A DNA stretch of 64,000 nt from Minisyncoccia bacterium (GTDB taxonomy: Bacteria > Patescibacteriota > Minisyncoccia > Phycocordibacterales > Phycocordibacteraceae), in assembly GCA_050011835.1 (NCBI GenBank), contig JBEKII010000001.1, positions 86,473 to 150,472 on the forward strand, given 5' to 3'. Of this stretch, positions 4,547-47,401 are shown piece by piece. The notes beneath the pieces are model-generated. The model had not been told where the DNA came from. It worked only from the letters and a program-made list of their open reading frames with translations, and ran no database searches. Position 1 is the first letter of the stretch. Every line of letters starts with the position of its first letter. A program made the position numbers and the translations under genes.

Positions 4547-5155
4547 TCATAAGGATATCCCGATATTTTTCAGGTCTGCGACAAGTTGTTCATTATTTTT
4601 GAATAAGACAGAAACATAACCGATTTCACTCGCTTTCTCTAAACTCCTGGATGAATCGTCAATAAAAATTACTTCTTCAGGCTGAAGATCAAGTTTTTCA
4701 AATAATACTTGAAATGCTTCTTTGTGAGGTTTTTGAAATCCTATTTCGCCGGAAATAACGATAACATCTACTAATTCGGCTATCCCGTTCAGATTTAATT
4801 TTTCTCTTAATTCTGAAGTCGCGTTACTTAAAATCCCAATCTTCAATCCCAATTGTCGTAATTTCGGGAATAAAGCGATTAAACCGGTGTTAATTTTTCC
4901 TTCTGAATGATGCGCCCGCACCATTGAAATGATTTCATTTTCCTTTTCTGTACTGACATTAAAAACTGATAGAACTTTTCGAAACATCTCGTACCAGTCA
5001 AGATTCATCACATTTGCGAGATGGTTGTGCTGAAAATAGACATTTTTAAATTCGTCATGCGGAACACCTAACAATTTAGCAGTGCTTTTCAAAGCTCCTT
5101 CATTTTCATACAGTTCTATGACACCACCAAAATCAAAAACTATTGCTTTTATCAT
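4547..5155 (-). CDS. HAD family hydrolase
   Basis: N-terminal DxG motif (IVFDFGGVI), a later SNA...K...IDDS pattern (ILSNATS, FIDDSSRSL). ~200 aa, typical HAD-IA phosphatase architecture. Confidence 0.75.
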   Translation of the reverse strand: MIKAIVFDFGGVIELYENEGALKSTAKLLGVPHDEFKNVYFQHNHLANVMNLDWYEMFRKVLSVFNVSTEKENEIISMVRAHHSEGKINTGLIALFPKLRQLGLKIGILSNATSELREKLNLNGIAELVDVIVISGEIGFQKPHKEAFQVLFEKLDLQPEEVIFIDDSSRSLEKASEIGYVSVLFKNNEQLVADLKNIGISL

Positions 5156-6620: not shown

Positions 6621-8484
6621 TTACGGTTTTTCTTTAAATTCCGCATCCACAGGCCCGGTGGATTCAGGAGGATTTTGTCCACCACTATCGCCCGAAGGCG
6701 GAGTTTGGTTCTTCATCATCGCCTCGCCGATTTTCATAAGCATTTGCGAGAGCGCGTCAGTCGCGCCTTTAATCGTTGACGGATCTTCGCTATTGCGTGC
6801 CGTCTTCAGAGCGTCAATTTTATCCTGCACCTCCTTCACCACTTCGGCACCGGCCTTTGCGCCATTTTCTCTTATCGCCTTTTCGGCTGCATAAATAGCT
6901 TGGTCGGCAATGTTGCGCGCTTCAACAAGTTCTTTACGTTTCTCATCGTCCGCCGTATGCGCTTCGGCATCGGCTTTCATTTTTTCAATATCGTCTTTAG
7001 AAAGTCCAGTTGAGCCGGTAATCTTTATTGATTGTTCTTTGCCGGTCGTTTTTTCTTTTGCTTTCAATGTCAAACGTCACTTCAATTTGCGGCATGCCGC
7101 GCGGCGCCGGCGGTATTCCATCCAACATAAATTTCCCGAGCGATTTGTTATCGGCGCTCATGGCGCGCTCGCCCTGCGTGATGTGAATCTCAACCGAGGG
7201 CTGATTATCTGCCGCGGTGGAAAAAGTTTGCGTGCGACTGGTTGGGATCGCCGTGTTGCGCTCAATGATTTTCGTCGCAACGCCACCCATTGTCTCTATG
7301 GCGAGCGAGAGCGGAATGACATCCACGAGCAAAATATCTTTGACATCGCCCTGGAGAATGCCCGCCTGAATGGCGGCGCCGACGGCGACCACTTCGTCCG
7401 GATTGACGCTCATATTCGGCTTCTTGCCGAAGAACTTCTCAACCTGCGCCTGGATCGCGGGCATACGCGTTTGGCCGCCAACGAGAATAACTTCGTTAAT
7501 TTCTCCTATTTTAAAAGGTGAGGCCTCCATCGCGCGCCTCGTGATAGTCATTGCGCGTTCAATGAATTCGCCCGCGAGGTCTTCAAGTTTCGCACGTGTC
7601 ATCTTAATGAGCATGTGGCGCGGGCCGGAGGCGTCGCTCGTGAGGAATGGAATATTAATTTCCGTTTCCATCGCACTAGAGAGTTCTATCTTCGCCTTTT
7701 CGGCGGCTTCGTCCAAGCGCTGGCGCGCGAGCGCGTCGGAACGCACATCAATGCCGCTTTCCCTTTTAAACTCATCCGCGAGCCAGTTGATAATTTTTTG
7801 GTCAATGTCCTTGCCGCCCAGATGCGCATCACCGTCGGTACTTTTCACTTCAATCACGTCACCGCCCACATCAAGCACGGAGATGTCAAACGTGCCGCCG
7901 CCGAAATCAAAGACCGCGATTTTCTCATCTTTTTTCTTGTTGAAACCGTACGCGAGCGCGGCCGCCGTCGGCTCATTAATAATGCGCTTGACTTCAAGGC
8001 CGGCAATCTGCCCCGCGGCCTTGGTCGCGCTGCGCTGGTCGTCGTTAAAATATGCAGGAACAGTGATGACCGCCTCGGTTATTTTTTCGCCCAGTTTCGC
8101 TTCGGCATCGGTTTTTAATTTTCCGAGGATCATCGCCGAAATTTCTTCGGGGCGGTACCATTTGTCCGTCATTTTTACTTCAATGCCGCCGTTGTCGGTC
8201 TTGCGCATTTCAAAAGGAACTGCAGCCCTATCCTTCTGGACCGCCGGCTCATCAAAACGATGGCCAATAAAGCGCTTGATTTGATAGATGGTGTTGAGCG
8301 GATTCGTAACCGATTGTCGCTTGGCAAGCGTGCCGACGATGCGCTCGCTATTCTTCCCTACCGCGACGATAGAAGGAGTCGTGCGCGCGCCCTCGGCATT
8401 CTCCAGGACACGCGGCTCGCCGCCTTCCACAATCGCCATCGCAGAATTCGTCGTGCCTAAATCAATGCCAAGAATTTTTGCCAT
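6621..8484 (-). CDS. dnaK: molecular chaperone DnaK, split by an apparent 1-nt frameshift (ORF pieces 6997..8484 and 6621..7073)
   Basis: The N-terminal piece reads [24 protein letters not shown]... through ...[16 protein letters not shown]. The C-terminal piece continues [33 protein letters not shown]... The frames switch inside the minus-strand A-rich run GAAAGCAAAAGAAAAAACG around 7047-7060. Confidence 0.85.
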
Positions 8485-33593: not shown

Positions 33594-34325
33594 CTACCCT
33601 AGGTCTCCTTTATCTTTTATGCAAGATGGGAAATCAGATAACTCGCATATTTTTTCAACAATTTTTTGTAAAGAATCCGGTCGTTCATCGAGCCATTTTG
33701 CCAAGGAATGTGTCGCGCCTTCCACAATTACTATTTCCCTGGACTTTGCATTTTGAGCAGAATCATAAATTTCCTCAATCACCTCATGCGGAACAATTTG
33801 ATCTTTTTCAGCCTTATATATCAAAAGATTATTTTTATAATTTTCTAAAATTTTCCAAGCATCGGTTTCCCGCCAACTGAAAGAACTCCTAATTATTTCT
33901 GTAAATGACGGTCCGAATGGAACGCCATAGGCCTTCGTTGCATACACAGCAGGAGCTAACAATATTAGATTTTTGACCTTATATAATTCTGTTAATTTGA
34001 TCGCGACATAACTACCCATACTCGATGCAACTATTGAGAGTGGCTGCGACACTTTCTGTGAATCAATGATGGCCGATGCTTGAGCAACTCTACTTTCCAG
34101 GGAAAATCCAGCCAAATTGCCTCCCGTTTCCCCGTGACCGATGAAATCAAAAGAACATGATGTAATTCCTTTGTTTGCCAAAAGGTTTCTTAATTGCTCG
34201 AACCTCTTTCTATCGCCCGAACCGGCTCCGTGAAGAAAAAGCCATTGAGGTTGAGTATCCGTATGGATGGTGTCGCCAGCCAGCACCATCCCATTAAAAC
34301 TGACTTTGAAAGATTTCCTTTTCAT
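33594..34325 (-). CDS. alpha/beta hydrolase
   Basis: HGAGSG oxyanion region and nucleophile elbow ASSMGS (GxSxG), plus a later D and H (EGATHS). 243 aa. Confidence 0.7.
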   Translation of the reverse strand: MKRKSFKVSFNGMVLAGDTIHTDTQPQWLFLHGAGSGDRKRFEQLRNLLANKGITSCSFDFIGHGETGGNLAGFSLESRVAQASAIIDSQKVSQPLSIVASSMGSYVAIKLTELYKVKNLILLAPAVYATKAYGVPFGPSFTEIIRSSFSWRETDAWKILENYKNNLLIYKAEKDQIVPHEVIEEIYDSAQNAKSREIVIVEGATHSLAKWLDERPDSLQKIVEKICELSDFPSCIKDKGDLG

Positions 34326-35194
34326 TGACGTAAAAAGTCGGCAAGTATAGTTGCCGTGGTTCGTATACTGTCATTATCAACTACGTTTGCGCCTTCTGAT
34401 ATACCGATTCTTCGAAAATTATGAGCCACTCCAGGAATGGTAGTGAATTTTATATTCGCCCCTTCATCCGACAATCGTTGTGCAAAAGTCTTATAGAAAT
34501 CTTGTATGTGTTTAGGAATTGGCGGATCATCTGCCTCAAAGAAACTAATGAAAATCGAACCGTCATTTTTTATATATTTTTCAAGTACGGGGAAAACAGG
34601 CGACTCAGCAACATTCCAATCTTCACGAATAATTCTACTAAAGGATTCTCCATACGGTATATTCTCTATACTTTTTGGAAATGCTGCGGGAGAAAGTAGC
34701 ACTATTTTAGGAACTTTTATTTCCAAGTTTTCTAATTGCTCAAGCGCATTAATGGCCATGTAAGCTCCGGCACTTGTACCGATGAGCGAAAGATTTGAGG
34801 ATTTTGTACGGTCATAAAAATATTTTGATGTTTCTACAAGAACTTCCGTTCGAGACTGAAAAGTTTCTTTTTCCCATTTGCCGGTTGAGCCGCCCGTAGC
34901 AGGCTGATTATATAAAAGACTTGATTCGGCCTGGTCAAGCATTTTGAGAGCGAGATGGCCATACAACTTATTTATTAGAGGTAACTTTTTACGACGTTCA
35001 GGATCGCGAGGGACACCTCCTACCATAGTTATTAACGGAGAATATTCTGGTCCGCGTGCCAACGCACACCTTATTTCTCTTCCTCCAATTACAACCTTCT
35101 CAACCTCAAACTTCCCGGTTTTTAACCACTCTATTTCTGACTGAGGAAGGTAATCCGCTCTGTTTCCCCCCTTTTCGTGTTTAAATTTTTCCAT
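34322..35194 (-). CDS. alpha/beta hydrolase (paralogue of 33594..34325)
   Basis: Nucleophile elbow GTSAGA, and a C-terminal GVAHNF His. There is an ATGA overlap with the downstream paralogue. RBS AAGGGAGAC. Confidence 0.65.
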   Translation of the reverse strand: MEKFKHEKGGNRADYLPQSEIEWLKTGKFEVEKVVIGGREIRCALARGPEYSPLITMVGGVPRDPERRKKLPLINKLYGHLALKMLDQAESSLLYNQPATGGSTGKWEKETFQSRTEVLVETSKYFYDRTKSSNLSLIGTSAGAYMAINALEQLENLEIKVPKIVLLSPAAFPKSIENIPYGESFSRIIREDWNVAESPVFPVLEKYIKNDGSIFISFFEADDPPIPKHIQDFYKTFAQRLSDEGANIKFTTIPGVAHNFRRIGISEGANVVDNDSIRTTATILADFLRQ

Positions 35195-37615: not shown

Positions 37616-37679
37616 AGTGTACCCTGTAACGAAATGAAATTCTAGAATATCCTTTCGCGAACCATTTCGGCAGATGAGT

Positions 37680-37766
37680 TGTGGACCTCAACGAAGCTGA
37701 TTGGAATCAGATTATCAATGAAATACGGTTATTAGCGGGACTCGCGGGGCAGTTTTAGTTCTACAA
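37680..37766. repeat. 87-bp intergenic repeat, copy A, containing palindrome CTGATTGGAATCAG (37697-37710)
   Basis: ~85% identical to 38406..38492 in direct orientation. Both copies lie just upstream of consecutive minus-strand genes. Confidence 0.8.
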
Positions 37767-37780
37767 AATATAAATGAAAA

Positions 37781-38399: not shown

Positions 38400-38405
38400 C
38401 ACCTT

Positions 38406-38492
38406 TGTGGACCTCAACGAAGCTGATTGGAATCAGATCATCAAAGAAGTACGGATTTTCGCTAGCCTCGCGGGACAGCTTTAGTTTTACAG
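38406..38492. repeat. 87-bp intergenic repeat, copy B, with palindrome CTGATTGGAATCAG (38423-38436)
   Basis: Direct repeat of 37680..37766. On the minus strand it abuts the -35 box of the promoter, at the position expected for an activator or operator site. Confidence 0.8.
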
Positions 38493-38571
38493 AAAAAAGA
38501 AAGCCATTGGATAAGATCCAATGGCTTCAGTACTTGATACAAAAAATCTTTTGATGTCAGGCGACAAAAGA

Positions 38572-39154: not shown

Positions 39155-39230
39155 TGGTGGACCCGAGGGGCTTCGAACCCCTTGCCTCCGCAATGCCATC
39201 GCGGCGCTCTACCAAGTGAGCTACGGGCCC
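39155..39230 (-). tRNA. tRNA-Ala (anticodon GGC), CCA encoded
   Basis: Manual fold: acceptor GGGCCCG/CGGGTCC with the G3:U70 alanine identity pair; anticodon loop ATGGCAT; T arm AGGGG-TTCGAAG-CCCCT. Confidence 0.85.
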
Positions 39231-39264
39231 GTACTTTATTTCTACCGCGTTTTGTTTCCAAAAT

Positions 39265-40101
39265 CTACCCTTCCAATTTCAAATTCTTCCCTTCTGCGTT
39301 CAAACGGAAAAAATTTTCAAACAATTTTGCAACAAGAATTGGCCCGGTGCCGCCGGGAGTTGGCGTATAAAAAATAATGCGCTGGTCGTCAGGCACTAAT
39401 TGTTCGTAATCAAAATCCCCGTGCATATTATCATACCCAAAATCAATCACCGCAGCACCTGTCTTGAGCATTTCCGGCTTTATAATGCTCGCCCTGCCGA
39501 CTCCGGTAATCACAAGGTCGGCATGTCTAAGTAAAGAAAGGTCACTCGTGCTTCGAAAAAGAATTGTTTCTCTTGCCTTGCGCATTATCCAATTCGCAAT
39601 CGGCCGACCGACAAGAAGACCGAGACCGACCACAGCAACGCTATGCAAACTAAGGTCGTATTTTTGCATCTCACACACCGCCTTCACAACACCCACCGCC
39701 GGTGAAAACATATCGGATTGCCCCGTGTAAAACGTGCCGAGCGAGCGAGCGCCCAAAACGTCAACGTCTTTCTCTGGTGGAATAATATTCAAAATAGAAT
39801 GGCGGTTGAGATGGTTCGGCAATGGCAGCTGCACAATTACACCGCCGCAATTTTTATCCGTCGCAATTTCCTTGACTCCATCCTGAAGGACATCATTTTC
39901 TATTTTTTCAGGAAATCGATAGAGACGGAAATCGATACCGATTTTCTTCGCGATATTTTCTTTTTGTTTCAAAAAACTCATCGATGCCACATTGTCGCCC
40001 ACCAAAACCGCCGCACAAAATTTCTTCGGCTTCGGCAGTGCTGCGAGCTGCCTCACAATATCATTCGCTATTCCTTTCCCATCAATGATTTGGTCTTTCA
40101 T
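39265..40101 (-). CDS. folD: bifunctional methylenetetrahydrofolate dehydrogenase/cyclohydrolase FolD
   Basis: 278 aa with a Rossmann region VVGLGLLVGRPIANW and a C-terminal TPTPGGTGP motif, matching FolD. Confidence 0.9.
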   Translation of the reverse strand: MKDQIIDGKGIANDIVRQLAALPKPKKFCAAVLVGDNVASMSFLKQKENIAKKIGIDFRLYRFPEKIENDVLQDGVKEIATDKNCGGVIVQLPLPNHLNRHSILNIIPPEKDVDVLGARSLGTFYTGQSDMFSPAVGVVKAVCEMQKYDLSLHSVAVVGLGLLVGRPIANWIMRKARETILFRSTSDLSLLRHADLVITGVGRASIIKPEMLKTGAAVIDFGYDNMHGDFDYEQLVPDDQRIIFYTPTPGGTGPILVAKLFENFFRLNAEGKNLKLEG

Positions 40102-40109
40102 TTTTATTG

Positions 40110-40182
40110 TGGACCATAGCGGGCTCGAACCGCTGACCTCGTCAATGCGAATGACGCGCTCTACCAGCTGAGCTAATGGCCC
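40110..40182 (-). tRNA. tRNA-Ala (anticodon CGC)
   Basis: Acceptor GGGCCAT/ATGGTCC with G3:U70; anticodon stem CGTCA/TGACG with loop TTCGCAT; T arm AGCGG-TTCGAGC-CCGCT. CCA is not encoded. Confidence 0.8.
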
Positions 40183-40219
40183 GTGCGAGATATGCTACCA
40201 CGTGTAAAAGTTATTTTCA

Positions 40220-40290
40220 TCGGGCCGCCGGGAATTGAACCCGGTCTACATCCACCCCATGGATGCGTACTACCGACATACTCCGGCCCG
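40220..40290 (-). tRNA. tRNA-Pro (anticodon GGG)
   Basis: Acceptor CGGGCCG/CGGCCCG (C1:G72); anticodon stem CATCC/GGATG with loop ATGGGGT; T arm CCGGG-TTCAATT-CCCGG; 4-nt variable loop. Confidence 0.75.
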
Positions 40291-40309
40291 TTTAAGGAGC
40301 TGCCTTCTG

Positions 40310-40380
40310 TCGGGCCGCCGGGAATTGAACCCGGTCTACACGCACCCGAAGCGTGCGTACTACCGGCATACTCCGGCCCG
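40310..40380 (-). tRNA. tRNA-Pro (anticodon CGG)
   Basis: Near-identical paralogue of the preceding tRNA-Pro, with anticodon arm CACGC-TTCGGGT-GCGTG. Confidence 0.75.
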
Positions 40381-40399
40381 ACACAGGACACCTCCTGAG

Positions 40400-40473
40400 T
40401 GCGCTCTATAGGATTCGAACCTATGACCTCTCGCGTGTGAAGCGAACGCTCTAACCAGCTGAGCTAAGAGCGC
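40400..40473 (-). tRNA. tRNA-Val (anticodon CAC)
   Basis: Acceptor GCGCTCT/AGAGCGC; anticodon arm TTCGC-TTCACAC-GCGAG; T arm ATAGG-TTCGAAT-CCTAT. Confidence 0.8.
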
Positions 40474-40502: not shown

Positions 40503-41438
40503 TTAGATTCCCAGATTTGCAAGTGCGCGCGTCACTTCATTAATCGGCAACGAGAAGCCGATATTCTCCGAGCCCTGCACCATCGCGACATTGATGCCAA
40601 TCGCTTCGCCTGTAAGATCTACCAGCGGACCGCCGGAATTCCCTGGATTGATAGCGGCATCGGTCTGTATCACTCCCGTTAAGGTTTCCGCGTTGCCCTG
40701 ATTATCTGACGCAGTGATACTTCGATTAAGACCGGATATGACACCGACAGAAACTGAATTGTTGTACTGCCCAAGTGCGTTCCCAACTGCAAAAACTGAT
40801 TGCGCGAGTTGGAGTGTTGAAGAATCGCCAAGCGGGACGACAGGATAACCGCTTCCGGCAATTTTTACTACAGCGAGGTCTTCTGTAGAGGAGCGCCAGA
40901 TGACAGTGCCTGTTTTCTGTGCTCCGCTAGCGAGCAATACGGTATATGTTGCGTTTTCATCCGGCACGACGTGTTTGTTGGTTATGACATAGCCATTGCT
41001 GCGCACGAGGAAGCCGGTGCCGGCGGAAACCTGCTCGGTCGTTGTGCCTACTTGCTGATAGACAGGTATCTGCATCCCGAAGCCCTGGAAAAACGGGTCG
41101 TTGCCAAAAGGATTTTCATACGTTACTTGAAGCTTTGGCACCTCCTGGCTCTCCACGATAGAAACGACCGCGGGCGTTACCTGCGCGACGGCATCTTGGA
41201 GCGATTGTGTCTCAGATTTCTGCGCCACTTGTTCGCGCCGCGCAAGTTCAGCGATATTCGCCGCAGTGCTTGACGCAGTTACATTTGCACTGTTTGCAAC
41301 TTGAACGATTGAAGATTGGAGAGTTGCAACTGAATGTGAAAGACGCGAGATTTCTTGATTTTCATAGAAGAATCCAGCCACAAGTAGCAGAACCGCCAGC
41401 AATGTCACGAGCCAGAGTTTATCGGTCTTATTTTTCAT
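40503..41438 (-). CDS. S1C (HtrA/DegP-like) trypsin-fold serine protease without PDZ domain
   Basis: Signal/anchor helix; catalytic His (ITNKHVV), Asp, and the Ser motif TDAAINPGNSGGPL. It ends after the protease domain at 311 aa. Confidence 0.85.
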   Translation of the reverse strand: MKNKTDKLWLVTLLAVLLLVAGFFYENQEISRLSHSVATLQSSIVQVANSANVTASSTAANIAELARREQVAQKSETQSLQDAVAQVTPAVVSIVESQEVPKLQVTYENPFGNDPFFQGFGMQIPVYQQVGTTTEQVSAGTGFLVRSNGYVITNKHVVPDENATYTVLLASGAQKTGTVIWRSSTEDLAVVKIAGSGYPVVPLGDSSTLQLAQSVFAVGNALGQYNNSVSVGVISGLNRSITASDNQGNAETLTGVIQTDAAINPGNSGGPLVDLTGEAIGINVAMVQGSENIGFSLPINEVTRALANLGI

Positions 41439-41479
41439 ACTCTTAATATTACGCGGCTGAACTATATTTTGCTACGCGA

Positions 41480-41587
41480 GTGGGCCACGGTGGAGGACGT
41501 TCGAACTTTTCTCTTGGAAGAAAGGCACTCCCGCATGTTAACACGGCACGATTAGTCGTGCGACGATCTTTTCGATTTCCTCATAAG
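41480..41587. repeat. X-element copy 1 (~110 nt structured repeat, possible small RNA), in htrA 5' region
   Basis: ~90% identical to 44661..44782. On the minus strand it ends ...GTCCTCCACCGTGGCCCAC, and a 9-bp palindrome TTCATCTAG/CTAGATGAA sits at its distal end (41588-41611). Confidence 0.7.
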
Positions 41588-41679
41588 TTCATCTAGTGGG
41601 GTCTAGATGAAGCGTTGGATCTTTGACAGGCACAGTGATGGACTCAAAATTTGAAATGAGAGTATAATAATGCCCAAAC

Positions 41680-42156
41680 ATGGCAAGTATAACCTTCAGC
41701 AAAGAGGAATTTGATGCGGTAAAAGCAAAGGCAGAGGCAGACTACAAAAAAGTAGGGGAGGTACAATGTCCTTATCTGAACAGCAAAATTGCTTTCAATG
41801 CAAAAGGCTTGGATCATATAAAAATGAAAAAATGGAACCATGCTAGGAGTAAAGACGATCAATTCATGAGGCTTAAACTACTTCATTTGGCACCTAGTGT
41901 GCTTAAAGAATCTCATACTCTCCAGGGCATTGATCAAGGAAACAAAATGGAACGTATTAAAATTAATTCACGATGGGAATTTAAAATGGTTTTTGTTTCC
42001 TATTATGATTTCATAAGCGTCATATCTGGGTGCAGAATAAGAATTGTGGTTAAAAATATAGAAAATGGCCCCAATTACTTTTGGAGCATTATTCCTTATT
42101 GGAAACAAGGGAATTATCGTAGGGAAATGTTTGAGGGGAATCCAGAAGAGGATTAA
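41680..42156 (+). CDS. hypothetical protein (158 aa), low GC
   Basis: A plus-strand ORF inside the AT-rich island. TATAAT lies 12 nt upstream of the ATG, and a strong terminator follows the stop. Confidence 0.5.
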   Translation: MASITFSKEEFDAVKAKAEADYKKVGEVQCPYLNSKIAFNAKGLDHIKMKKWNHARSKDDQFMRLKLLHLAPSVLKESHTLQGIDQGNKMERIKINSRWEFKMVFVSYYDFISVISGCRIRIVVKNIENGPNYFWSIIPYWKQGNYRREMFEGNPEED

Positions 42157-42162
42157 CAAAAA

Positions 42163-42190
42163 ACCGCCACAACACGTGGCGGTTTTTCGG
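42163..42190. terminator. bidirectional rho-independent terminator
   Basis: AAAAA-ACCGCCAC-aaca-GTGGCGGT-TTTTT: a stem with A and T tracts on either side, lying between convergent 41680..42156 (+) and the SDR gene (-). Confidence 0.65.
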
Positions 42191-42403
42191 TGGCACCTGG
42201 CTACGGTTTATGTATTAACCGTGGGAGAACTAGGTCCTCACAAGTGCCTTGCCAGTATAACAAATATGGATGAGGATTTCAAGAAGTTGGGGATAATGAA
42301 AATATGCCTTAAAATAAGGCTCTCCGGTCTAGCTCAAAGTAGCTGCGGGTCTGCGGCTCTATCTTTTGCAAATTTTACGTCCTAGAATCTCATCACGGGT
42401 CAA

Positions 42404-43153
42404 TTAAGAACCCAACATTTCGGCTTCCTTCAAATAGATTTCTGTTGTTGCTGTATCACCACCGTCAATTGTGATCGTCGTCCCGTTTATGTAGCTTGAA
42501 TTATTGGAGAGGAGGAAAAAGACGAGCTGCGCGATATCCTCATAAGTTCCGTTCCTTTTAAGAGGATTCATATCAGCGGCTTCTTTGAGCAAATCTGGCG
42601 GAGCCTGCATGCCGTCTCCTATCCAGCCAGGAGCAATTGCATTCACACGTACCTTCTTTTTACTCAAGATAACCGCAAGACTCTTGGTGAGATTAAGAAG
42701 TGCTGCCTTGCTTGCGGCATAGGCGATGCCATCGATACCACCTACCATCGCGTCAATGCTTGATATGTTGACGATAGATGCCCCCTCAGCTAACTGATTC
42801 TTGAGGCCATGGACGATAATGAGTGGCGTATTGAAGTTGATCTCGATAGTCCTATCCCAATCTTCCATCTTGAGATTATCAAATTCGATGGGTACGAATA
42901 CTCCAGCACTATTCACAATACCGTCGAAGCTGACACTGGAAAGCTCTTTGAGTAGTCGCATCGTATTATGTCGATCTGAAAAGTCGCATTGGAACACCTT
43001 TATGTTCTTGAGTTCTTCAACAAGTTTGTTTGCTTCCGCTTTGTTTGTGTTGTACACGCCGTATACAAAAAAGCCTTTCTGCACGAGAAGTCTGGCTGTG
43101 GCTTCCCCCATGCCACGAGATACGCCTGTAACGAGGATGTTTTTCATGATCAA
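42404..43153 (-). CDS. SDR family oxidoreductase (FabG-like)
   Basis: TGVSRGMGEATARLL (TGxxxGxG), NSAG, and the catalytic YAASKAAL (YxxxK). Confidence 0.85.
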   Translation of the reverse strand: MIMKNILVTGVSRGMGEATARLLVQKGFFVYGVYNTNKAEANKLVEELKNIKVFQCDFSDRHNTMRLLKELSSVSFDGIVNSAGVFVPIEFDNLKMEDWDRTIEINFNTPLIIVHGLKNQLAEGASIVNISSIDAMVGGIDGIAYAASKAALLNLTKSLAVILSKKKVRVNAIAPGWIGDGMQAPPDLLKEAADMNPLKRNGTYEDIAQLVFFLLSNNSSYINGTTITIDGGDTATTEIYLKEAEMLGS

Positions 43154-43286
43154 AGTATAGCAGAGTTCGAATTCTTAGATGGGTACATTTCTTTAAGTCT
43201 CGAACCGATTTTTAAAATGGCTTAGAATATGATGCTCTTCGGAGTCCGAACCTATCTCAAGTTAGCTGGGAGTAAAGGAATCGAAT

Positions 43287-43369
43287 CTTTATTTGGCTTA
43301 TATTTATATAATTGATTTAAGAGTTTAAGAAGGGAGAATTTGCCCAAAAGCGCAATTTTACCTACCTAT
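43287..43369. repeat. S-element copy (~80 nt AT-rich intergenic repeat)
   Basis: CTTTATTTGGCTTATAT...TTAAGAGTTTAAGAAGGGAGAATTTGCCCAAAAG.GCAATTTTACCTAC, ~85-90% identical to 44585..44660 and 46732..46808. Confidence 0.75.
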
Positions 43370-43434
43370 ATGGTGGGCCACAGTAGAGGACGTTCGAACT
43401 TTTTATCGAGAAACAGAAAACCTTGCAATTTAGA
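43370..43434. repeat. X-element partial copy (3' ~35 nt conserved, ends ...CTGTGGCCCACCA on minus strand)
   Basis: TGGTGGGCCACAGTAGAGGACGTTCGAACTT matches the 3' end of the X elements. It begins 1 nt after the stop of the exonuclease gene. Confidence 0.65.
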
Positions 43435-43435
43435 A

Positions 43436-43942
43436 TTATAATATGATCTTTCGTAAAATATCAGCAGCAATCCTACAATCTTCTAGGGCATTATGAAGTT
43501 CTCTGGGTTTTGCTCCGAATTCCCTAAAGATCTCCTCTGAACGCAGACTGCCACTATACCCCTTTTTTAGCAGGTGGATATAGGCGACAGGCCAGATATC
43601 TAAAATATGATAATCATACTGCTCCCAGGTTATTCCCGCCGCATTTATAATTTTCTTAAAATGCGTTATGTCTAAAGTCGCCGCCCAGGATCCGATAAGA
43701 ATGTCTGTTCCGAACTTTTCAAAAATCAGTCGTCCAACTTCCGCTTGCGAGGGAGCACCCTTCAACGTATCTTGAGATATACCCGAGATAACATTAACTT
43801 CACCCTTGAGATCGGCAAAAATATACGAAGAGAAGTTATCTATTTCATTCAAGGTTTCTTTATCTAAAAGTACCGCTCCGATTTGATTCGGTTCCGGTCT
43901 ACCTTCAAAATCGATAAATAAAATGTTTTTTGCAAATTTCAT
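43436..43942 (-). CDS. DEDDh-type 3'-5' exonuclease (DnaQ-like)
   Basis: Exo I FIDFEG, Exo II-like region, and Exo III HNALEDCRIAA (H-x4-D). 168 aa and AT-rich. Confidence 0.65.
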   Translation of the reverse strand: MKFAKNILFIDFEGRPEPNQIGAVLLDKETLNEIDNFSSYIFADLKGEVNVISGISQDTLKGAPSQAEVGRLIFEKFGTDILIGSWAATLDITHFKKIINAAGITWEQYDYHILDIWPVAYIHLLKKGYSGSLRSEEIFREFGAKPRELHNALEDCRIAADILRKIIL

Positions 43943-43975
43943 ATGCTGGCTGCACAGTATAACACGAGAACTAAA

Positions 43976-44554
43976 TTAGGATTTCTCAAGCACACATAAC
44001 ACTTCATCAAAACCACCTTTAGAGATACCTTCGAAATGAGAGATGTGCCATTTCCCATTCTCAACTTCTCGGCGAAAACCATCTGAACTGAAGAAGCTTT
44101 GCCAATGTATGGGTGACTTTTGTTTCAGTCTGAAATTCACCCAGAAATCCAGTAGCGCAAGCTGTATTTTACCGAAGAAATTGTGGTATAACTCTTCGAC
44201 AAGAATAATGCGTTTTGAAGTAACGCGCCTCATTTCTTCTAAGAGCGCCTTCCGATCAAATGCGTGATGCAGCACATACGTGGCAATTGAAGTCTCGAAG
44301 GCATTGTCGTCGAAAGGCATTCGTCTCCCATCGTAGAGAATAAAATTCTTCACGTTGACGGCTTTTGGATGTTTAATGATTTCAAGCGACACAATTTTTA
44401 TCCCTGCCCTCTCTGCAAAAAATGAGAAGTGGCCCAAACCGCTACCAATATTCAGATTGGTATCGAGGAGATAAGGATGTATTCGTTCAAACCACTGTTT
44501 TTGATATTGCTGAATGAAGCTAGTTGCGTCCATTGGATGCAGTATATCTCCCAA
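43976..44554 (-). CDS. class I SAM-dependent methyltransferase
   Basis: Motif I LLDTNLNIGSGLGHF, post-I acidic residue (VSLEI), and motif IV-like DDNAFE. AT-rich. The start may be the internal ATG at MDATSF. Confidence 0.65.
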   Translation of the reverse strand: MGDILHPMDATSFIQQYQKQWFERIHPYLLDTNLNIGSGLGHFSFFAERAGIKIVSLEIIKHPKAVNVKNFILYDGRRMPFDDNAFETSIATYVLHHAFDRKALLEEMRRVTSKRIILVEELYHNFFGKIQLALLDFWVNFRLKQKSPIHWQSFFSSDGFRREVENGKWHISHFEGISKGGFDEVLCVLEKS

Positions 44555-44584
44555 AATATCCAGCTGGGGGTAAGGAGATCAAAC

Positions 44585-44660
44585 CTTTATTTTAGCTTAT
44601 ATAATTGATTTAAGAGTTTAAGAAGGGAGAATTTGTCCCAAAGTGCAATTTCTACCTACA
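44585..44660. repeat. S-element copy
   Basis: See 43287..43369. It is located between X-element copy 2 and the methyltransferase start. Confidence 0.75.
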
Positions 44661-44782
44661 TGGTGGGCCACAGTGGAGGACGTTCGAACTTTTCTCTTGG
44701 AAGAAAGGCACTCCCGCATGTTAGCACAGCACGATGAGTCGTGCGACGATCTGTTCGATTTCCTCACAGATTCATCATAAGG
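44661..44782. repeat. X-element copy 2 (full length, ends ...GTCCTCCACTGTGGCCCACCA on minus strand)
   Basis: ~120-nt element with an internal hairpin CACGA-CTCA-TCGTG and the palindrome GTTCGAAC, with a tRNA-like CCACCA terminus. Compensatory-looking changes relative to copy 1 occur in the hairpin region. Confidence 0.7.
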
Positions 44783-44894
44783 CTCACGAATGACGATACA
44801 AGAAAGGTAATTGTGCCTCATAAGGCAAAATTTAGTAAAACAAGATATCGGAGGAACTTCTCTATAATTAAAATAGCTTCCAACGTCGCACCCG

Positions 44895-45638
44895 CTATCG
44901 ACTGGCCGTTTCAGTCTTGGTATTCCATCTATAAAAATAATAGAACCAAAAATTCGTCCCGATTCTTTTAACAGAAAATCTATAATGAGAAAATTCTTTA
45001 ATCACTTTCTCTGAAAATGCAGAGGCAAAGGCGTAATCAGCCGACCGCTTCTTGGGATCCCATACGCCCCGCCTAACTCGGCCACGAGCAGTTGTATGGC
45101 AATTCGGGATTGCTATCAAGAGCTGCGATTCTCGTTTCAGTTTCTCATTTAAATCTTTTACAAAACGCTTAATTCCTTTACGCAGAGAGGTCGACGAAAT
45201 CGAAGTAATTGCAACAATTATATCAATGCTATTATTGCGAATCCTTCTTCTCTTTCCGGATACGACATCCTTCCCCTGAAATTTTCGGATGTCCCCTTTT
45301 ATGAATCGGATCTTCGGATAATCCTTATATGTATCAGCGGCATCCTTCAAAGAATCTTCGATGAGATCGCAGACAATAATATTCAAGTTTTTGAAAGGTT
45401 TCTTTCCGATCTTCTTTTGGATAAATTTAAGCTCGTAACCATTATTGACGCCAATATCGAGCAGGTGATCGCCTGGAGAAAATCGCATCCATTTGAGAGC
45501 TTGTTTCAAGCTCCGCTTTATGTCGGGGTTGGAATATAAAATCTTCTGGGCTTTCTGGTAATCGGATTCAGGACCGTATTTCTTCCTGTAATCCTCGGGT
45601 AAGCTTTTTTCCCTAATTATCTGCGATGTCCATTTCAT
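44895..45638 (-). CDS. SAM-dependent methyltransferase
   Basis: Motif I HLLDIGVNNGYE and an acidic post-I residue (IVCDLIED). 247 aa and AT-rich. Confidence 0.6.
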   Translation of the reverse strand: MKWTSQIIREKSLPEDYRKKYGPESDYQKAQKILYSNPDIKRSLKQALKWMRFSPGDHLLDIGVNNGYELKFIQKKIGKKPFKNLNIIVCDLIEDSLKDAADTYKDYPKIRFIKGDIRKFQGKDVVSGKRRRIRNNSIDIIVAITSISSTSLRKGIKRFVKDLNEKLKRESQLLIAIPNCHTTARGRVRRGVWDPKKRSADYAFASAFSEKVIKEFSHYRFSVKRIGTNFWFYYFYRWNTKTETASR

Positions 45639-45650
45639 AAAAAGATGAAA

Positions 45651-46634
45651 TTAATACATAGTAGTGCGGACGCGATGGAACGGGCGGGCAACGGCAGCTT
45701 TCTGCTTCGCGTCGAGCCAAAGATAATCGTTGATATCGATGGCATTTAATACTTTTTCTTTCTTGAAAAGATATCGCCTCATGTACTCAACAGCCCAAAT
45801 GGTCGTTGCCCGAATCTCGACTTCGTACGGCGAACCTGGCAAAATTTGCTTTTCTGAATCGACCAACGCGGAGAGCTCTTCGCTATAATGAAGAATCATA
45901 ATTTCACGCAATAATTGTGGCAATCGGTAATCGGCGGCGGCAGTAAGGCTGGAAACATTCTTCAAATTTCCAAGCGGCGGCTTCAACATCCTGCTTATGT
46001 CACCAATGAAAATCTGGGCTTTCTTCATGAAATACACTTTCTTTCCTTTGTAAGTCGCCTCATCCCGAAAAGCCGGAAAGGTCACGTATATATCTCCAAG
46101 AAGTTTTGCGGCATCATGATTTGCAGTTTCAATCATGCGAGCCAAAGAACCATCAAAGTTTCTACATATGATTTCGCAATTCTCCCTTAAGATACGGCAA
46201 CGTTCCGAAAAGATTGGAATTTCGACATCTTTGTTTATTATCTTATTGAGTTCTTCATCCGATATTTTGGAAAGATATTGCAAATTCAAAATTGGCAACT
46301 TGTTCTCGTAGGCGGCATATAGCGCCACATCTAGTCCCCATGAAGTCATATATTTCTTTCCTTTGTATTCAAAGAAATAATCCGGTGGACCCCAGTACGA
46401 GAAACTCAACGAGGAAAATACGAAGATGAAATTCAACAGCTCCATCTGGGTAAAAGCTGAGATGTCAGCCGGCCCAGCCAGGAGCCAAGGCTTAAGCTCG
46501 GCAATTTGTAGATTGTCCACGTATCGCTCGAGTTCTTTCTGATCAATAGAAACATGCTGGGCATGCTCAACGACAAATTTCGTTGATTCCAAGACTGAAT
46601 CGGATGCAAATGACTGGTGGGTATCTTGAGGCAT
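45651..46634 (-). CDS. DUF2419/Qng1-like protein (putative queuosine-salvage queuosine-5'-phosphate N-glycosylase/hydrolase)
   Basis: 327 aa. Segments FVFSSLSFSYW..YKGKKY.TSWGL, ERCRIL.EN, LFEGKKVYF.KKAQI and AADYRLPQ..R..L.YS match, from memory, the conserved blocks of eukaryotic Qng1 (C9orf64) family proteins. This needs an HMM check. Confidence 0.5.
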   Translation of the reverse strand: MPQDTHQSFASDSVLESTKFVVEHAQHVSIDQKELERYVDNLQIAELKPWLLAGPADISAFTQMELLNFIFVFSSLSFSYWGPPDYFFEYKGKKYMTSWGLDVALYAAYENKLPILNLQYLSKISDEELNKIINKDVEIPIFSERCRILRENCEIICRNFDGSLARMIETANHDAAKLLGDIYVTFPAFRDEATYKGKKVYFMKKAQIFIGDISRMLKPPLGNLKNVSSLTAAADYRLPQLLREIMILHYSEELSALVDSEKQILPGSPYEVEIRATTIWAVEYMRRYLFKKEKVLNAIDINDYLWLDAKQKAAVARPFHRVRTTMY

Positions 46635-46731
46635 AATGTTAAAAGAATTATAGCAAGATAAATAAATTAAAATCCATGAACCAAAAGCCCACCCAAGACA
46701 TCTCTAGCGCGTTTGGGAGAAGAGAATCGAA

Positions 46732-46808
46732 CCTTTATTTTGGCTTATATAATTGGTTTTAAAAGTTTAAGAGGGAGAATTTGCCCCAAAGTACAATTTT
46801 TACCTACG
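46732..46808. repeat. S-element copy immediately 3' of tRNA-Ala(TGC)
   Basis: The same ~78-nt element as at 43287 and 44585. Similarity extends ~10 nt into the tRNA 3' end (GTCCACCA versus GCCCACCA of the X elements). Confidence 0.75.
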
Positions 46809-46884
46809 TGGTGGACCCAAGCGGACTCGGACCGCTGACCCCCACATTGCAAATGTGGTGCTCTACCAGCTGAGCTATGGGCCC
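46809..46884 (-). tRNA. tRNA-Ala (anticodon TGC), CCA encoded; atypical T-loop (C at position 55)
   Basis: Acceptor GGGCCCA/TGGGTCC with G3:U70; anticodon arm CCACA-TTTGCAA-TGTGG; T arm AGCGG-TCCGAGT-CCGCT. The unusual T loop lowers confidence slightly. Confidence 0.7.
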
Positions 46885-46957
46885 TAAAACAAATCCTCCG
46901 GATTTGTTCGGGCGGACATTCCGTTGCGAAATGTTTTAGCCCTTCCTCTTTATCTTA

Positions 46958-47401
46958 TCATTTTTGACCAATTACTTGAAGTTGGATTAAGGCCTTAAAA
47001 GCATGTTCTGTTGCTTCGATAAGCGGAAACTTGGAATAATCTGAAATTGATACCCATTTGTAATCGTCATGATCCGTGCCAAGCTTAACTTCTGAATTTA
47101 TTGGTTCACACACAAAAAACATGCCGATTATCTGAATCTGTTCGCCCCTTACAACAGGTCTCCATTCGTCAACAAAAAATGGCCCGCCAATTTTTACTTT
47201 CATTCCAACTTCTTCCTTAGTTTCCCTTTCAATTGCTTGAGTAATAGATTCTCCAATTTTCACCTTACCACCAGGAAAGTCATACTTACCGTGGTTTGTC
47301 CCTCCATCATACTTATCGGATTCCTTAATAATTAAAACTTTGCCGTCTTTGATAATGACGGCGCGAACGGCAATAAATTGTTTTTGAATTGTTGGTTCCA
47401 T
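46958..47401 (-). CDS. NUDIX hydrolase
   Basis: Nudix box GGKVKIGESITQAIERETKEEVG. The start is placed at MEPTIQK; the 311-aa ORF-track version is an unsupported upstream extension into ddl. Confidence 0.8.
   Translation of the reverse strand: MEPTIQKQFIAVRAVIIKDGKVLIIKESDKYDGGTNHGKYDFPGGKVKIGESITQAIERETKEEVGMKVKIGGPFFVDEWRPVVRGEQIQIIGMFFVCEPINSEVKLGTDHDDYKWVSISDYSKFPLIEATEHAFKALIQLQVIGQK

Follow-up and report, generated by a model that had tools for sequence, protein, structure and literature searches.

A 5.3-kb block behind tRNA-Ala(TGC) of an uncultured Kaiserbacteria has junctions consistent with tandem integration of three integrase-less modules

The 64-kb stretch of DNA analysed here (the window) comes from an uncultured member of the Kaiserbacteria (candidate phyla radiation, CPR). 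Six small genes form an AT-rich block of 5.3 kb in it, directly behind a tRNA-Ala gene. Synteny with related genomes shows that this block was inserted behind tRNA-Ala(TGC). We consider it probable (about 0.6) that positions 46810 to 41480 constitute a tandem array of three cargo modules without an integrase, inserted serially at the extreme 3′ end of the tRNA by site-specific recombination.

The island (41439-46808) has a GC content of 0.412, against 0.492 in the remainder of the window, and is its lowest-GC 5.4-kb stretch: 2 of 587 sliding 5.37-kb segments are equally low, and both overlap it. This confirms a low-GC island bounded by tRNA-Ala(TGC), as proposed by the sequence-only reading, and the tRNA itself is recognized by ARAGORN and Rfam. 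The gene set given there was likewise recovered by Pfam (SDR, RNase_T/DEDDh, Methyltransf_11 and Q_salvage, with a weak Methyltransf_12 match below the cut-off). AT-rich genes had been placed between htrA and the tRNA; the six island genes do have GC contents of 0.36–0.45 (window mean 0.486, sd 0.048), but the NUDIX gene, which lies upstream of the tRNA, is AT-rich as well (0.378). The NUDIX gene is found in only some relatives and is probably a separate accessory insertion. NUDIX and Qng1 are neighbours in locus L097, too. Five of the six island genes read in the same direction as the tRNA. Module C also contains a well-supported candidate small RNA gene, with a promoter-like site (TTGAAA-17-TATACT with TG, 42282..42254) and a transcript of ~90 nt (42250..42158) that is predicted to fold into a three-way junction and to end in an intrinsic terminator.

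Table 1 Features of the island and its flanks, in the direction of the tRNA.
Feature	Position	Strand	Remarks
NUDIX hydrolase gene	46958..47401	-	between ddl and tRNA
tRNA-Ala(TGC)	46809-46884	-	ARAGORN; Rfam tRNA model, 66 bits
S3 arm, P′-like arm of putative attL	46703..46810	-	begins at C75 of the tRNA's encoded CCA; ends ~70 nt ahead of the Qng1 start codon
Module A gene 1, Qng1-like queuosine salvage protein, 327 aa	45651..46634	-	Pfam Q_salvage, E = 5e-71
Module A gene 2, methyltransferase-like protein, 247 aa	44895..45638	-	weak Methyltransf_12 match, below cut-off
X3, P-like arm and tRNA-end-like core ending ..GTGGCCCAC	44663..44780	-	module A right end; 91% identical to X1 over 118 nt
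S2 arm, module B left end	44555..44662	-	with X3, a complete attP-like junction of ~226 nt
Module B gene 1, SAM methyltransferase, 185 aa	43976..44533	-	Pfam Methyltransf_11, E = 2e-9; start codon as called on the public contig
Module B gene 2, DEDDh (RNase_T) exonuclease, 168 aa	43436..43942	-	Pfam RNase_T
X2, short copy	43373..43417	-	X-like only in the last ~45 nt including the core, 83% identical to X3 there; begins 19 nt past the exonuclease stop codon
S1 arm, module C left end	43257..43372	-	
Unique leader, 103 nt	43154-43256		between S1 arm and SDR gene
Module C gene 1, short-chain dehydrogenase/reductase (SDR), FabG-like, 247 aa	42404..43147	-	
Candidate small RNA gene	42158..42282	-	promoter-like site, folded transcript and terminator
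Module C gene 2, 158-aa protein, function unknown	41680..42156	+	weakly related to LPD3; convergent with candidate small RNA
X1, P-like arm and core, left half of putative attR	41480..41597	-	no S behind
Spacer, 41 nt	41439..41479	-	breakpoint to htrA start codon
htrA-like serine protease gene	40503..41438	-	conserved flank, far side of island

Two repeat families punctuate the island. By direct matching, S is present in three copies (43274-43384, 44567-44677 and 46715-46825), with S3 76–81% identical to S2 and S1. X is present in two full copies (41480-41593 and 44663-44776), which are 93% identical without gaps, and as one short piece of 31–45 nt, X2 (43373-43403). Dinucleotide shuffles gave an expectation of 0 for such matches. 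The full arms are longer than first read from the sequence: S measures ~108–116 nt rather than ~78 nt, and X ~118 nt rather than ~110 nt. The CCACCA end ascribed to X was found in X2 and X3 only, while X1 ends in ..CCCACTCG. Repeats had been reported in every intergenic gap; they do occupy four junctions, but the gaps at 42157-42403, 43943-43975 and 45639-45650 are repeat-free. No further copy of S or X is present in the 64-kb window.

The four repeat junctions are tRNA/S3, X3/S2, short X2/S1, and X1 followed by the 41-nt spacer and htrA, all on the minus strand. S thus occurs without X at the tRNA, X is followed by S at both internal junctions, and X occurs without S at the htrA end. All four share one breakpoint, with the last shared base at 46811, 44663, 43373 and 41480; in each case it is the final C of ..CCAC, equivalent to C74 of the tRNA. 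The junctions that bear S all read CCACCA. The attR side has no encoded CCA (..CCAC TCG) and resembles most relatives in this, since only 16 of 69 encode CCA. The T-loop of the tRNA is TCCGAGT, with C at position 55. As had been noted, one S copy abuts a genuine tRNA-Ala and the S/X alignment reaches into the 3′ end of that tRNA. With the register set by S, X matches 11–12 of the last 20 tRNA bases; a 12/20 match is equalled by 0.07% (7e-4) of all 20-mers of the window. This imperfect core match argues against integration, as elements that target tRNA genes typically have a core identical to the tRNA end. As a whole, the sequence pattern of attL, internal attP-like sites and attR nevertheless supports site-specific integration, in tandem, of three modules with two genes each.

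Across 80 related Ddl loci the order UvrC-Ddl-tRNA-Ala(TGC) is kept, and none of the 80 has any island gene within 10 kb of Ddl. After tRNA-Ala(TGC), the closest Kaiserbacteria MAGs continue with htrA or tRNA-Val at a distance of 25–374 nt, and htrA follows the tRNA directly in L006, L010, L013, L014, L021, L027 and L062. Removal of 46810..41480 leaves the tRNA, the 41-nt spacer and htrA, in agreement with the 34–124 nt spacers between tRNA-Ala(TGC) and htrA in relatives. The nearest homolog of Qng1 outside this population is only 57% identical, compared to 85% for Ddl. Module A has a counterpart in a further CPR genome (L095), where Qng1 (57% identical) and a 242-aa neighbour, 50% identical to the 247-aa methyltransferase-like protein, directly follow tRNA-Gly(CCC) and 2–3 partial 3′ copies of that tRNA. 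Footprints of this type are also seen at tRNA-Ala(TGC) of relatives: L051 and L059 have direct copies of the tRNA 3′ end, and in L059 two of them bracket a ~570-nt segment; across loci, 10 such copies are downstream of the tRNA and 1 upstream. S and X were not found in the relatives' loci, viral contigs, phages or plasmids, and in a JGI metagenome scan X matched this locus only. Two readings had been given earlier, serial site-specific integration at a tRNA gene and a modular region assembled through recombination at repeats, with a decayed island as a possible outcome. The integration reading is strengthened by synteny and by the single breakpoint at four junctions: relatives lack the block, and the repeats were found at no other locus.

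We propose that module A (the Qng1-like and methyltransferase-like genes, 2148 nt), module B (methyltransferase and DEDDh exonuclease, 1290 nt) and module C (SDR, candidate small RNA and 158-aa protein, 1893 nt) each carried one attP-type site of ~226 nt, composed of an X arm, a tRNA-end-like core and an S arm. tRNA-Ala(TGC) would be the integration target (attB side) and contribute attL's left half. Each attP-type site would be cut at ..CCAC on recombining with the tRNA end, and because of this split the array would read tRNA/S3 (attL), X3/S2 and X2/S1 (attP-like sites re-formed between neighbours), and X1/original flank (attR), followed by htrA. The 41-nt spacer presumably represents the original flank of the tRNA (B′). 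The S arm precedes the leading gene of every module and is probably its promoter source. The modules may have been mobile and acquired one by one; since S and X were found nowhere else, membership in a mobile family cannot be claimed. The recombinase would have been lost, or be encoded elsewhere in the genome, and the array now appears fixed and partly decayed, with X2 truncated and the S copies 19–24% diverged.

No integrase had been noted in the window before, and a search for tyrosine and serine recombinases through most, not all, of the window and of the 7–9 kb beyond each end found none. It drew on motif matching, on Pfam searches with chosen ORFs and on precomputed Pfam matches of the called genes. 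The only mobility gene in the vicinity encodes an rve-type DDE transposase; it lies ~1 kb past the left window edge and ~42 kb away from the island. Neither an island-free or shorter variant nor a circular junction was detected among the few independent contigs of the population.

Local duplication and homologous recombination could have produced the repeats without a dedicated site-specific recombinase, if S were a native promoter region downstream of the tRNA that was copied before relocated genes. S is always upstream of a unit's first gene, and its AT-rich, -10-element-like stretch (AATTATATAAG) is kept in three of three copies. The exonuclease (many homologs of 60–83% identity across Parcubacteria, in unrelated contexts) and the 158-aa protein (widespread in Parcubacteria, in other contexts) are ordinary genes that could have been relocated, and modules B and C are not conserved as units elsewhere. 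The tRNA cluster is also rearranged and inverted in many relatives, and in more distant ones the inter-tRNA gaps hold housekeeping genes (gyrB, glyA, folD) as well; ordinary rearrangement may account for part of the variability. We nonetheless find this origin unlikely for the island. It explains neither the X arm standing alone at the distal end, nor the single base of the tRNA end at which 4/4 junctions break, nor the relative-like spacer left by removal of the block. The genes behind the S copies are not paralogs of each other, and S gave no hit in a simple promoter scan.

A still less probable reading is that the locus is a working platform, at which promoter-bearing cassettes with an X-core-S site are shuffled at tRNA-Ala by an unlinked, trans-acting recombinase; it would be integron-like in function but anchored on a tRNA gene. 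The internal X3/S2 junction appears to be a complete site, five of six genes are oriented as the tRNA, and S stands before the leading gene of every module. In L095, module A is met again behind a different tRNA. The inter-tRNA gaps of relatives are very diverse in content, with 149 ORFs in 101 clusters. However, the cassette content is invariant among independent assemblies, and the diverged S copies and truncated X2 do not suggest a site in use. Neither the recombinase, within the range searched, nor S/X copies outside the locus were found, and the X-core-S site has no attC-like palindrome.

It is very unlikely that X, S or both are selected functional RNA elements, whether as small RNA genes or as tRNA-like signals for the processing of a long transcript, which they would punctuate. 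Although the ..CCCACCA end of X2 and X3 resembles that of a tRNA, and the elements are found between coding units on the coding strand, they match no Rfam family and fold no better than shuffled sequence on either strand (z -0.8 to +1.3). The acceptor-like 3′ end has no complementary 5′ strand, the X body has no detectable tRNA similarity, X1 lacks the CCA, and relatives lack the elements. An assembly artefact or repeat-caused chimera is the least likely reading of all: while short-read contigs of some samples end inside S copies (L087, L090), the island order was assembled independently from several samples, with both internal junctions spanned, in the same order, by a 277-kb contig and, from another sample, by an independent contig of 10.8 kb, and with several more in agreement.

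Serial integration of three modules at the tRNA end, the reading we prefer, has partial counterparts among known systems. The island resembles classical tRNA-linked genomic and pathogenicity islands, and prophages with a tyrosine integrase, in its low GC, its insertion at a tRNA 3′ end, its absence from relatives and its flanking direct repeats that include the tRNA end. It differs in being very small, in having no integrase beside the tRNA and in its internal att-like junctions. Like an integron cassette array, it is a row of small, mostly co-oriented units, each bounded by one family of recombination sites, and excision would in principle restore one site per free cassette. Unlike an integron, it has no intI or attI, its ~226-nt site has no attC-type imperfect palindrome, its anchor is a tRNA gene, and each cassette has two genes and probably its own promoter. 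Tandem integrations separated by partial tRNAs have been described for tycheposons (10.1101/2020.12.28.424599). Their arrays in Prochlorococcus genomic islands likewise place cargo modules at tRNA genes of a streamlined genome, with partial tRNA copies between successive integrations and degenerate remnants further in. However, tycheposons are defined by a tyrosine recombinase and replication genes, neither of which is present here, and the repeated unit of the island extends past the tRNA-like core by ~110 nt in both directions. Integrase-less elements that keep att sites are known as cis-mobilizable elements (CIMEs), which accrete in tandem at tRNA 3′ ends in ICESt1-related streptococcal islands (PMC5704250). 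The island shares with them att-type sites at both module ends without an integrase, modules arranged head to tail behind one target gene, and an intact target gene at one end, matched at the opposite end by a partial copy of the gene's 3′ end. In contrast to CIMEs, its modules are only 1.3–2.1 kb with two genes each, remains of transfer or integration genes are absent, the core is only ~60% identical to the tRNA end, and the host is a CPR bacterium without a known conjugative partner element. We regard the island as a decayed, integrase-less tandem of an already known kind.

The six genes between the htrA-like protease gene and tRNA-Ala(TGC) constitute an insertion behind this tRNA gene that is missing from the same position in relatives. 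All of them but one lie on the minus strand, on which the island (46810..41480) is read here. The GC content of 41439-46808 is 0.412, compared to 0.492 in the remainder. In sliding windows this is the lowest 5.4-kb stretch of the window, and all six genes fall below the window mean of 0.486. The AT-rich block behind tRNA-Ala(TGC) described in the sequence-only reading is confirmed by the GC scan, ARAGORN, Rfam and Pfam. Homologs of the exonuclease and the 158-aa protein elsewhere are likewise more AT-rich than their own host loci, so low GC is partly a trait of these gene families. Scans of the island proteins against Pfam, PHROGs and NCBIfam returned small enzymes only, and no tyrosine recombinase or replication-module hallmark genes. 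An identity of the cargo as phage or defence genes was rejected, as the PHROGs and PADLOC matches are generic enzymes only.

Features of the island and its junctions (window coordinates unless a locus from another genome, L104 or L115, is named; junctions run from the tRNA end to the htrA end)
Feature	Position or junction sequence	Strand	Basis
tRNA-Ala(TGC)	46809-46884	-	ARAGORN and Rfam
Qng1-like Q_salvage protein	45651-46634	-	Pfam
247-aa methyltransferase-like protein	44895-45638	-	weak Pfam match
Methyltransf_11 protein (185 aa)	43976-44533	-	Pfam
RNase_T/DEDDh exonuclease	43436-43942	-	Pfam
Short-chain dehydrogenase (SDR)	42404-43147	-	Pfam
Candidate small RNA gene	42158-42282; L104 7478-7615; L115 3484-3622	- (window copy)	promoter-like site, fold, terminator
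158-aa protein	41680-42156	+	without Pfam match
htrA-like protease	40503-41438	-	Pfam
Junction JL	left: tRNA ..GGGTCCAC; right: CACGTAGGTAA.. (S3)		minus-strand alignment
Junction J1	left: ..GTGGCCCAC (X3); right: CATGTAGGTAG.. (S2)		minus-strand alignment
Junction J2	left: ..GTGGCCCAC (short X2); right: CATATAGGTAG.. (S1)		minus-strand alignment
Junction JR	left: ..GTGGCCCAC (X1); right: TCGCGTAGCAAAATATAG.., htrA ATG 41 nt past the break		minus-strand alignment

Other low-GC genes of the window lie at 1527-2090, 2218-2718, 4547-5155 and 33594-35194. A metallo-beta-lactamase-fold gene immediately downstream of tRNA-Tyr has a GC content of 0.41, and further low-GC genes encode an acetyltransferase (0.43), a HAD hydrolase (0.35) and two neighbouring alpha/beta hydrolases (0.40). 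No repeats were seen around these genes, which may be additional small accessory insertions. Repeats of other kinds occur at two places in the window. A 90-nt direct repeat is present in two copies (37679-37768 and 38405-38494; 86% identical, 726 nt apart) that lie close to small genes without known function. The gene for a 949-aa protein (57726-60575, minus strand; no Pfam match on record) encodes a run of about 26 glycines and Gly/Ser/Ala/Asp-rich tracts; it contains a 96-nt tandem duplication (97% identical) and repeats at 58583-58688, 58918-59102 and 59522-59684.

The sequence-only reading had proposed a synteny comparison with relatives. We located the flanking genes, island genes and tRNAs in the surroundings of 80 Ddl homologs from species-representative genomes. 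The window belongs to a metagenomic contig of 277 kb (JGI 3300037993 Ga0427919_0000068). Its Ddl is 73-85% identical to that of MAGs labelled Candidatus Kaiserbacteria or Paceibacterota, which places the organism among the Patescibacteria. The order Ddl then tRNA-Ala(TGC) is kept across the clade, usually continuing as (htrA)-tRNA-Val-tRNA-Pro-tRNA-Pro-tRNA-Ala-tRNA-Ala. The closest relatives, with a Ddl of 79-85% identity, have htrA or tRNA-Val 25-374 nt past tRNA-Ala(TGC). The six island genes are absent within 10 kb of Ddl in 80/80 loci. Removal of 46810..41480 leaves the tRNA, a 41-nt spacer and htrA; the relatives' spacers measure 34-124 nt. All contigs bearing flanking or island proteins (4-8 per protein) show the full array, and the agreement in gene order among independent contigs of this population makes an assembly artefact very unlikely.

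Behind htrA, the Val-Pro-Pro-Ala(CGC)-Ala(GGC) tRNA array (39155-40473 in the window) occurs in inverted or reshuffled form in many relatives; across the window and the relatives' Ddl loci, its inter-tRNA gaps measure between about 20 nt and 7 kb. The gene folD (39265-40101) is located between tRNA-Ala(CGC) and tRNA-Ala(GGC) in the window, and beside tRNA-Ala(TGC) in one relative (L007). The resident tRNA-Ala(TGC) itself has the T-loop TCCGAGT, with C for the near-universal U at position 55; TCC at that position occurs in only 3-4 of about 70 related tRNA-Ala(TGC) genes.

The island contains two families of repeats: S, a repeat arm (S1-S3), and X, a repeat arm with a tRNA-end-like core (X1-X3). 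Both families, which the sequence-only reading had described, are real and, within the window, restricted to the island region; shuffles predict zero matches. Details of that reading are revised: repeats are found at four junctions and not in each intergenic gap, S measures about 110 nt instead of about 78, and the CCACCA end ascribed to X holds except in X1. Over about 110 nt the three S arms share 76-81% identity, and X1 is 91% identical to X3 over 118 nt, while X2 is similar to the other X copies over the last ~45 nt only. The complete X-core-S site spans about 226 nt.

Alignment of the four repeat-bearing intergenic regions shows that each consists of two of four sequence kinds meeting at a single point. 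The last common base is at 46811 (C74 of the tRNA, JL), 44663, 43373 and 41480, and every break follows ..CCAC. The internal junctions are hybrids, X3/S2 at 44663/44662 and X2/S1 at 43373/43372. A core resembling the end of the tRNA recurs at both internal junctions and at the distal end, but its identity to the tRNA is partial: with the register set by S, X agrees with the final 20 tRNA bases at 11-12/20 positions, a level equalled by 0.07% of window 20-mers (7e-4). Three modules are delimited in this way, A (Qng1-like protein and 247-aa methyltransferase-like protein), B (185-aa methyltransferase and DEDDh exonuclease) and C (SDR, candidate small RNA and 158-aa protein), with lengths of 2148, 1290 and 1893 nt from the breakpoint spacing. 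Each has an S arm on one side, an X arm with core on the other, and cargo genes alone between. Within X-core-S, only weak 8-mer repeats (CACTGTGG and CACTTTGG) flank the breakpoint; as arm-type or core-type recombinase-binding repeats they are not convincing.

We consider it probable, at about 0.6, that the island is a decayed, integrase-less array of three two-gene modules accreted at tRNA-Ala(TGC) by tandem integration. The insertion and the arrangement of its junctions support the earlier suggestion of serial site-specific integration at a tRNA gene, or of a decayed island. Circular elements, each with one P-O-P' attachment site, would have recombined successively with the chromosomal site. 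One end of the array would then consist of the intact target and P' (attL), P-O-P' would be re-formed between neighbours, and P and the original flank would make up the other end (attR). P would correspond to the X arm, O to the ..CCAC region at the tRNA end and P' to the S arm; the predicted empty site is tRNA ..CCAC directly joined to TCGCGTAGC. All S-bearing junctions read CCACCA and the attR-side flank has no encoded CCA, as in 53/69 relatives, so the encoded CCA of this tRNA would derive from the incoming element. Only 16/69 of the relatives' tRNA-Ala(TGC) genes encode CCA. We infer the recombinase family; arm-containing attP sites of tyrosine integrases have a size range like the ~226 nt measured here. 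The same logic applies to tandem tycheposon integrations with partial tRNAs between them (10.1101/2020.12.28.424599), and CIMEs (cis-mobilizable elements) have lost the integrase and kept the att sites (PMC5704250).

The main rival is an origin of the array by duplication and recombination. The gaps between these tRNAs contain ordinary genes in distant relatives, including gyrB, glyA and a P-type ATPase, so plain rearrangement adds to the variability around the tRNA array. The use of one breakpoint at four junctions, together with a related module behind a different tRNA elsewhere, suggests that the clade's flexible gene pool draws on tRNA-targeted recombination in addition to random rearrangement. 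That related module is found in another CPR (candidate phyla radiation, Patescibacteria) genome, at locus L095 (7470-9730), where the closest Qng1 homolog is followed by a 242-aa gene whose product is 50% identical to the 247-aa protein. The pair is located immediately behind tRNA-Gly(CCC) (7601-7673) and 2-3 partial 3' copies of that tRNA. Its 3' fragments are at 7756-7816 (diverged, as though donor-derived) and 7849-7916 (with a ~35-nt T-loop insertion), and a 5' fragment is at 7478-7495. Module A thus behaves as a two-gene unit tied to tRNA att debris at two tRNAs. Neither module B nor module C recurs as a conserved unit elsewhere, and the closest exonuclease and 158-aa homologs occur in unrelated surroundings without their window partners.

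The cargo is a mix of rare and common CPR genes: Qng1 reaches only 57% identity with its closest homolog beyond this population, a Nanoarchaeota MAG being among the next ones, and the exonuclease and the 158-aa protein have many Parcubacteria homologs of 60-83% identity in other contexts. One 544-aa Qng1 homolog (P0024) is a SAM methyltransferase fused to a Q_salvage domain, and in a Nanoarchaeota MAG (L097, 5160-6945) a NUDIX gene, a 137-aa gene and Qng1 are side by side. This fusion and this neighbourhood hint at a functional link between the NUDIX, Qng1 and methyltransferase genes of the window.

Footprints at tRNA ends are present in the relatives as well. Their Ddl loci contain ten duplications of a tRNA 3' end just downstream of the tRNA, and one upstream. 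In L051 (4315-4500) and L059 (1742-2600), the 3' ~55 nt of tRNA-Ala(TGC) are directly copied 100-144 nt downstream of the gene. A third copy in L059 (2558-2594; 37 nt, 100% identical) brackets, with the second, a ~570-nt segment with one small ORF. The copies in these two loci are classic att-type footprints without an integrase. Among relatives with insertions behind tRNAs no S/X-like repeated arms were found; only tRNAs and tRNA fragments repeat. Four relatives contain a unit of ~170 nt after tRNA-Ala(TGC) and a terminator hairpin (L016 7297-7545; L024 4913-5160; L041 10995-11260; L068 11340-11613, minus strand). The unit opens with the tRNA 3' end in reverse complement (GGGCCGTACAGGATTCGAAAGG..) and finishes with a direct copy, both arms co-vary with the resident tRNA, and the internal motif GAGCCGGGGTCG is conserved; Rfam gave no match. 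A recombination footprint is one possible explanation of the unit, an unknown RNA with an Ala-type acceptor helix another.

A cassette system that actively shuffles is less likely than duplication and recombination. Exact-protein look-ups of Qng1, the 185-aa methyltransferase, SDR, HtrA and NUDIX returned no island-free, partial or rearranged variants, and the order was the same throughout. It is a rather improbable extension that Paceibacteria/Kaiserbacteria use the conserved tRNA array (Ala-Val-Pro-Pro-Ala-Ala) as an integron-like cassette platform. Modules of 1-2 genes, each with its own promoter and a common attP-type site of ~226 nt, would be captured serially at a tRNA 3' end by an unlinked recombinase. 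Module C would add a possible stabilising pair, the small RNA convergent with the 158-aa protein, whose fold weakly resembles a toxin.

The candidate small RNA lies between the convergent SDR and 158-aa genes. Its 60-nt core (42192-42251) is 100% identical to a sequence in another genome (L104/L105), where it adjoins a 158-aa homolog that is only 73% identical; the terminator hairpin beside it carries compensatory differences. On the minus strand the core is preceded by a promoter-like site, TTGAAA-17-TATACT with TG, whose L104 counterpart, read off the alignment, is TTGAAT-17-TATCCT. The predicted transcript of ~90 nt (42250..42158) would form a three-way junction followed by an intrinsic terminator, with folding z of -5.9 including the terminator and -3.5 for the junction alone. 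A third locus, L115 from Sungbacteria (158-aa homolog 51% identical), has a promoter-like TGGACA-18-TATATT, read straight from the sequence, and also folds into a three-way junction and terminator. In L115, helices 1 and 3 as well as the terminator show two-sided base-pair changes. Overall, 94.7% of cells are paired, compared to 38-55% in slid controls. Rfam gave no match to the candidate. On these three sequences only, it is a good candidate for a small RNA family.

The sequence-only reading had noted that no integrase is present and suggested looking just outside the window. Scans that covered the island, most of the window and most of the 7-9 kb past either end turned up none. The only mobility gene is an rve-type DDE transposase past the left edge (329 aa; L114 14504-15493, ~0.5-1.5 kb outside window position 1). 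On the right lies a TraG/TrwB-like ATPase, a 921-aa DUF8128/DUF87/TraG-like protein that spans the window edge (L113 7048-9813; window about 63352 to beyond 64000). The search for S and X that had been proposed was extended to related loci, viral contigs, phages, plasmids and metagenomes and led to no other locus. No copies were found in the rest of the window, the 80 kb of contig read or the other loci; blastn against 114 loci returned nothing outside this population. Patterns of X-core and S gave no match in viral contigs, nor did the X3/S2 junction in phages and plasmids. A metagenome scan with the X core retrieved three short contigs, all from this same locus.

Several other identities of the repeats were rejected. 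Neither S nor X matches Rfam at gathering or permissive thresholds, and on both strands they fold no better than shuffles (z -0.8 to +1.3). X is not a decayed whole tRNA: its body scores no better than shuffles against tRNA-Ala(TGC) and six other window tRNAs, one ungapped register out of ten tried gives 21/52 matches, and an anticodon-loop-like CTTCCAA is without supporting stems. A 29-nt match (83%) of X to the SDR coding region was treated as chance; a stop codon just upstream closes the frame, and no coding pattern is seen where X1 and X3 differ. S carries a T-arm-like motif at its distal end (AAAGGTTCGATTC..), which is uninformative, as a loose T-arm scan gives ~48 matches per strand window-wide. 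MITEs and insertion sequences have terminal inverted repeats, target-site duplications and many dispersed copies; the ends of X-core-S are without inverted repeats, and no dispersed copies were seen in the sequence covered.

The genomes of CPR/Patescibacteria are tiny and contain few recognised mobile elements, and the gain of accessory genes in these bacteria is therefore poorly documented. The locus provides a nucleotide-resolved case of gene gain at a tRNA gene in a CPR organism, and the X-core-S site and the tRNA-Ala end are concrete substrates for tracing the recombinase. A by-product is the candidate small RNA family outside Rfam, which in two CPR classes has conserved promoter-like hexamers in corresponding positions, a three-way junction and a terminator. 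Should the array be no more than a fossil, it would be an ordinary decayed island of limited further interest.

Integrons combine intI, an adjacent attI and a Pc promoter, and their attC sites are imperfect palindromes of 57-141 nt with R''/L'' and L'/R' boxes. Here the anchor is a tRNA gene without an integrase, and the ~226-nt site has a 6-bp stem in X as its sole hairpin and no inverted-repeat pair; an integron was rejected, as there is no attC-like palindrome and no intI. Tycheposons carry a tyrosine recombinase and replication-module hallmark genes, whereas the island is without both. Like tRNA-linked integrative islands, the block is inserted at a tRNA 3' end and absent in relatives. Such islands contain an integrase, usually beside the tRNA, which is missing here, and their direct repeats hold the 3' part of the tRNA, while the core here matches it at 11-12/20. 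They also excise as circles and leave an empty site in part of a population; the 4-8 contigs per protein seen here all carry the full array. All three modules resemble CIMEs, with att sites on both sides and no integration or transfer genes, and the X3/S2 and X2/S1 junctions correspond to the hybrid att sites of head-to-tail tandem accretion. The array would thus be a genomic island of a known kind, from a lineage in which few such events have been documented.
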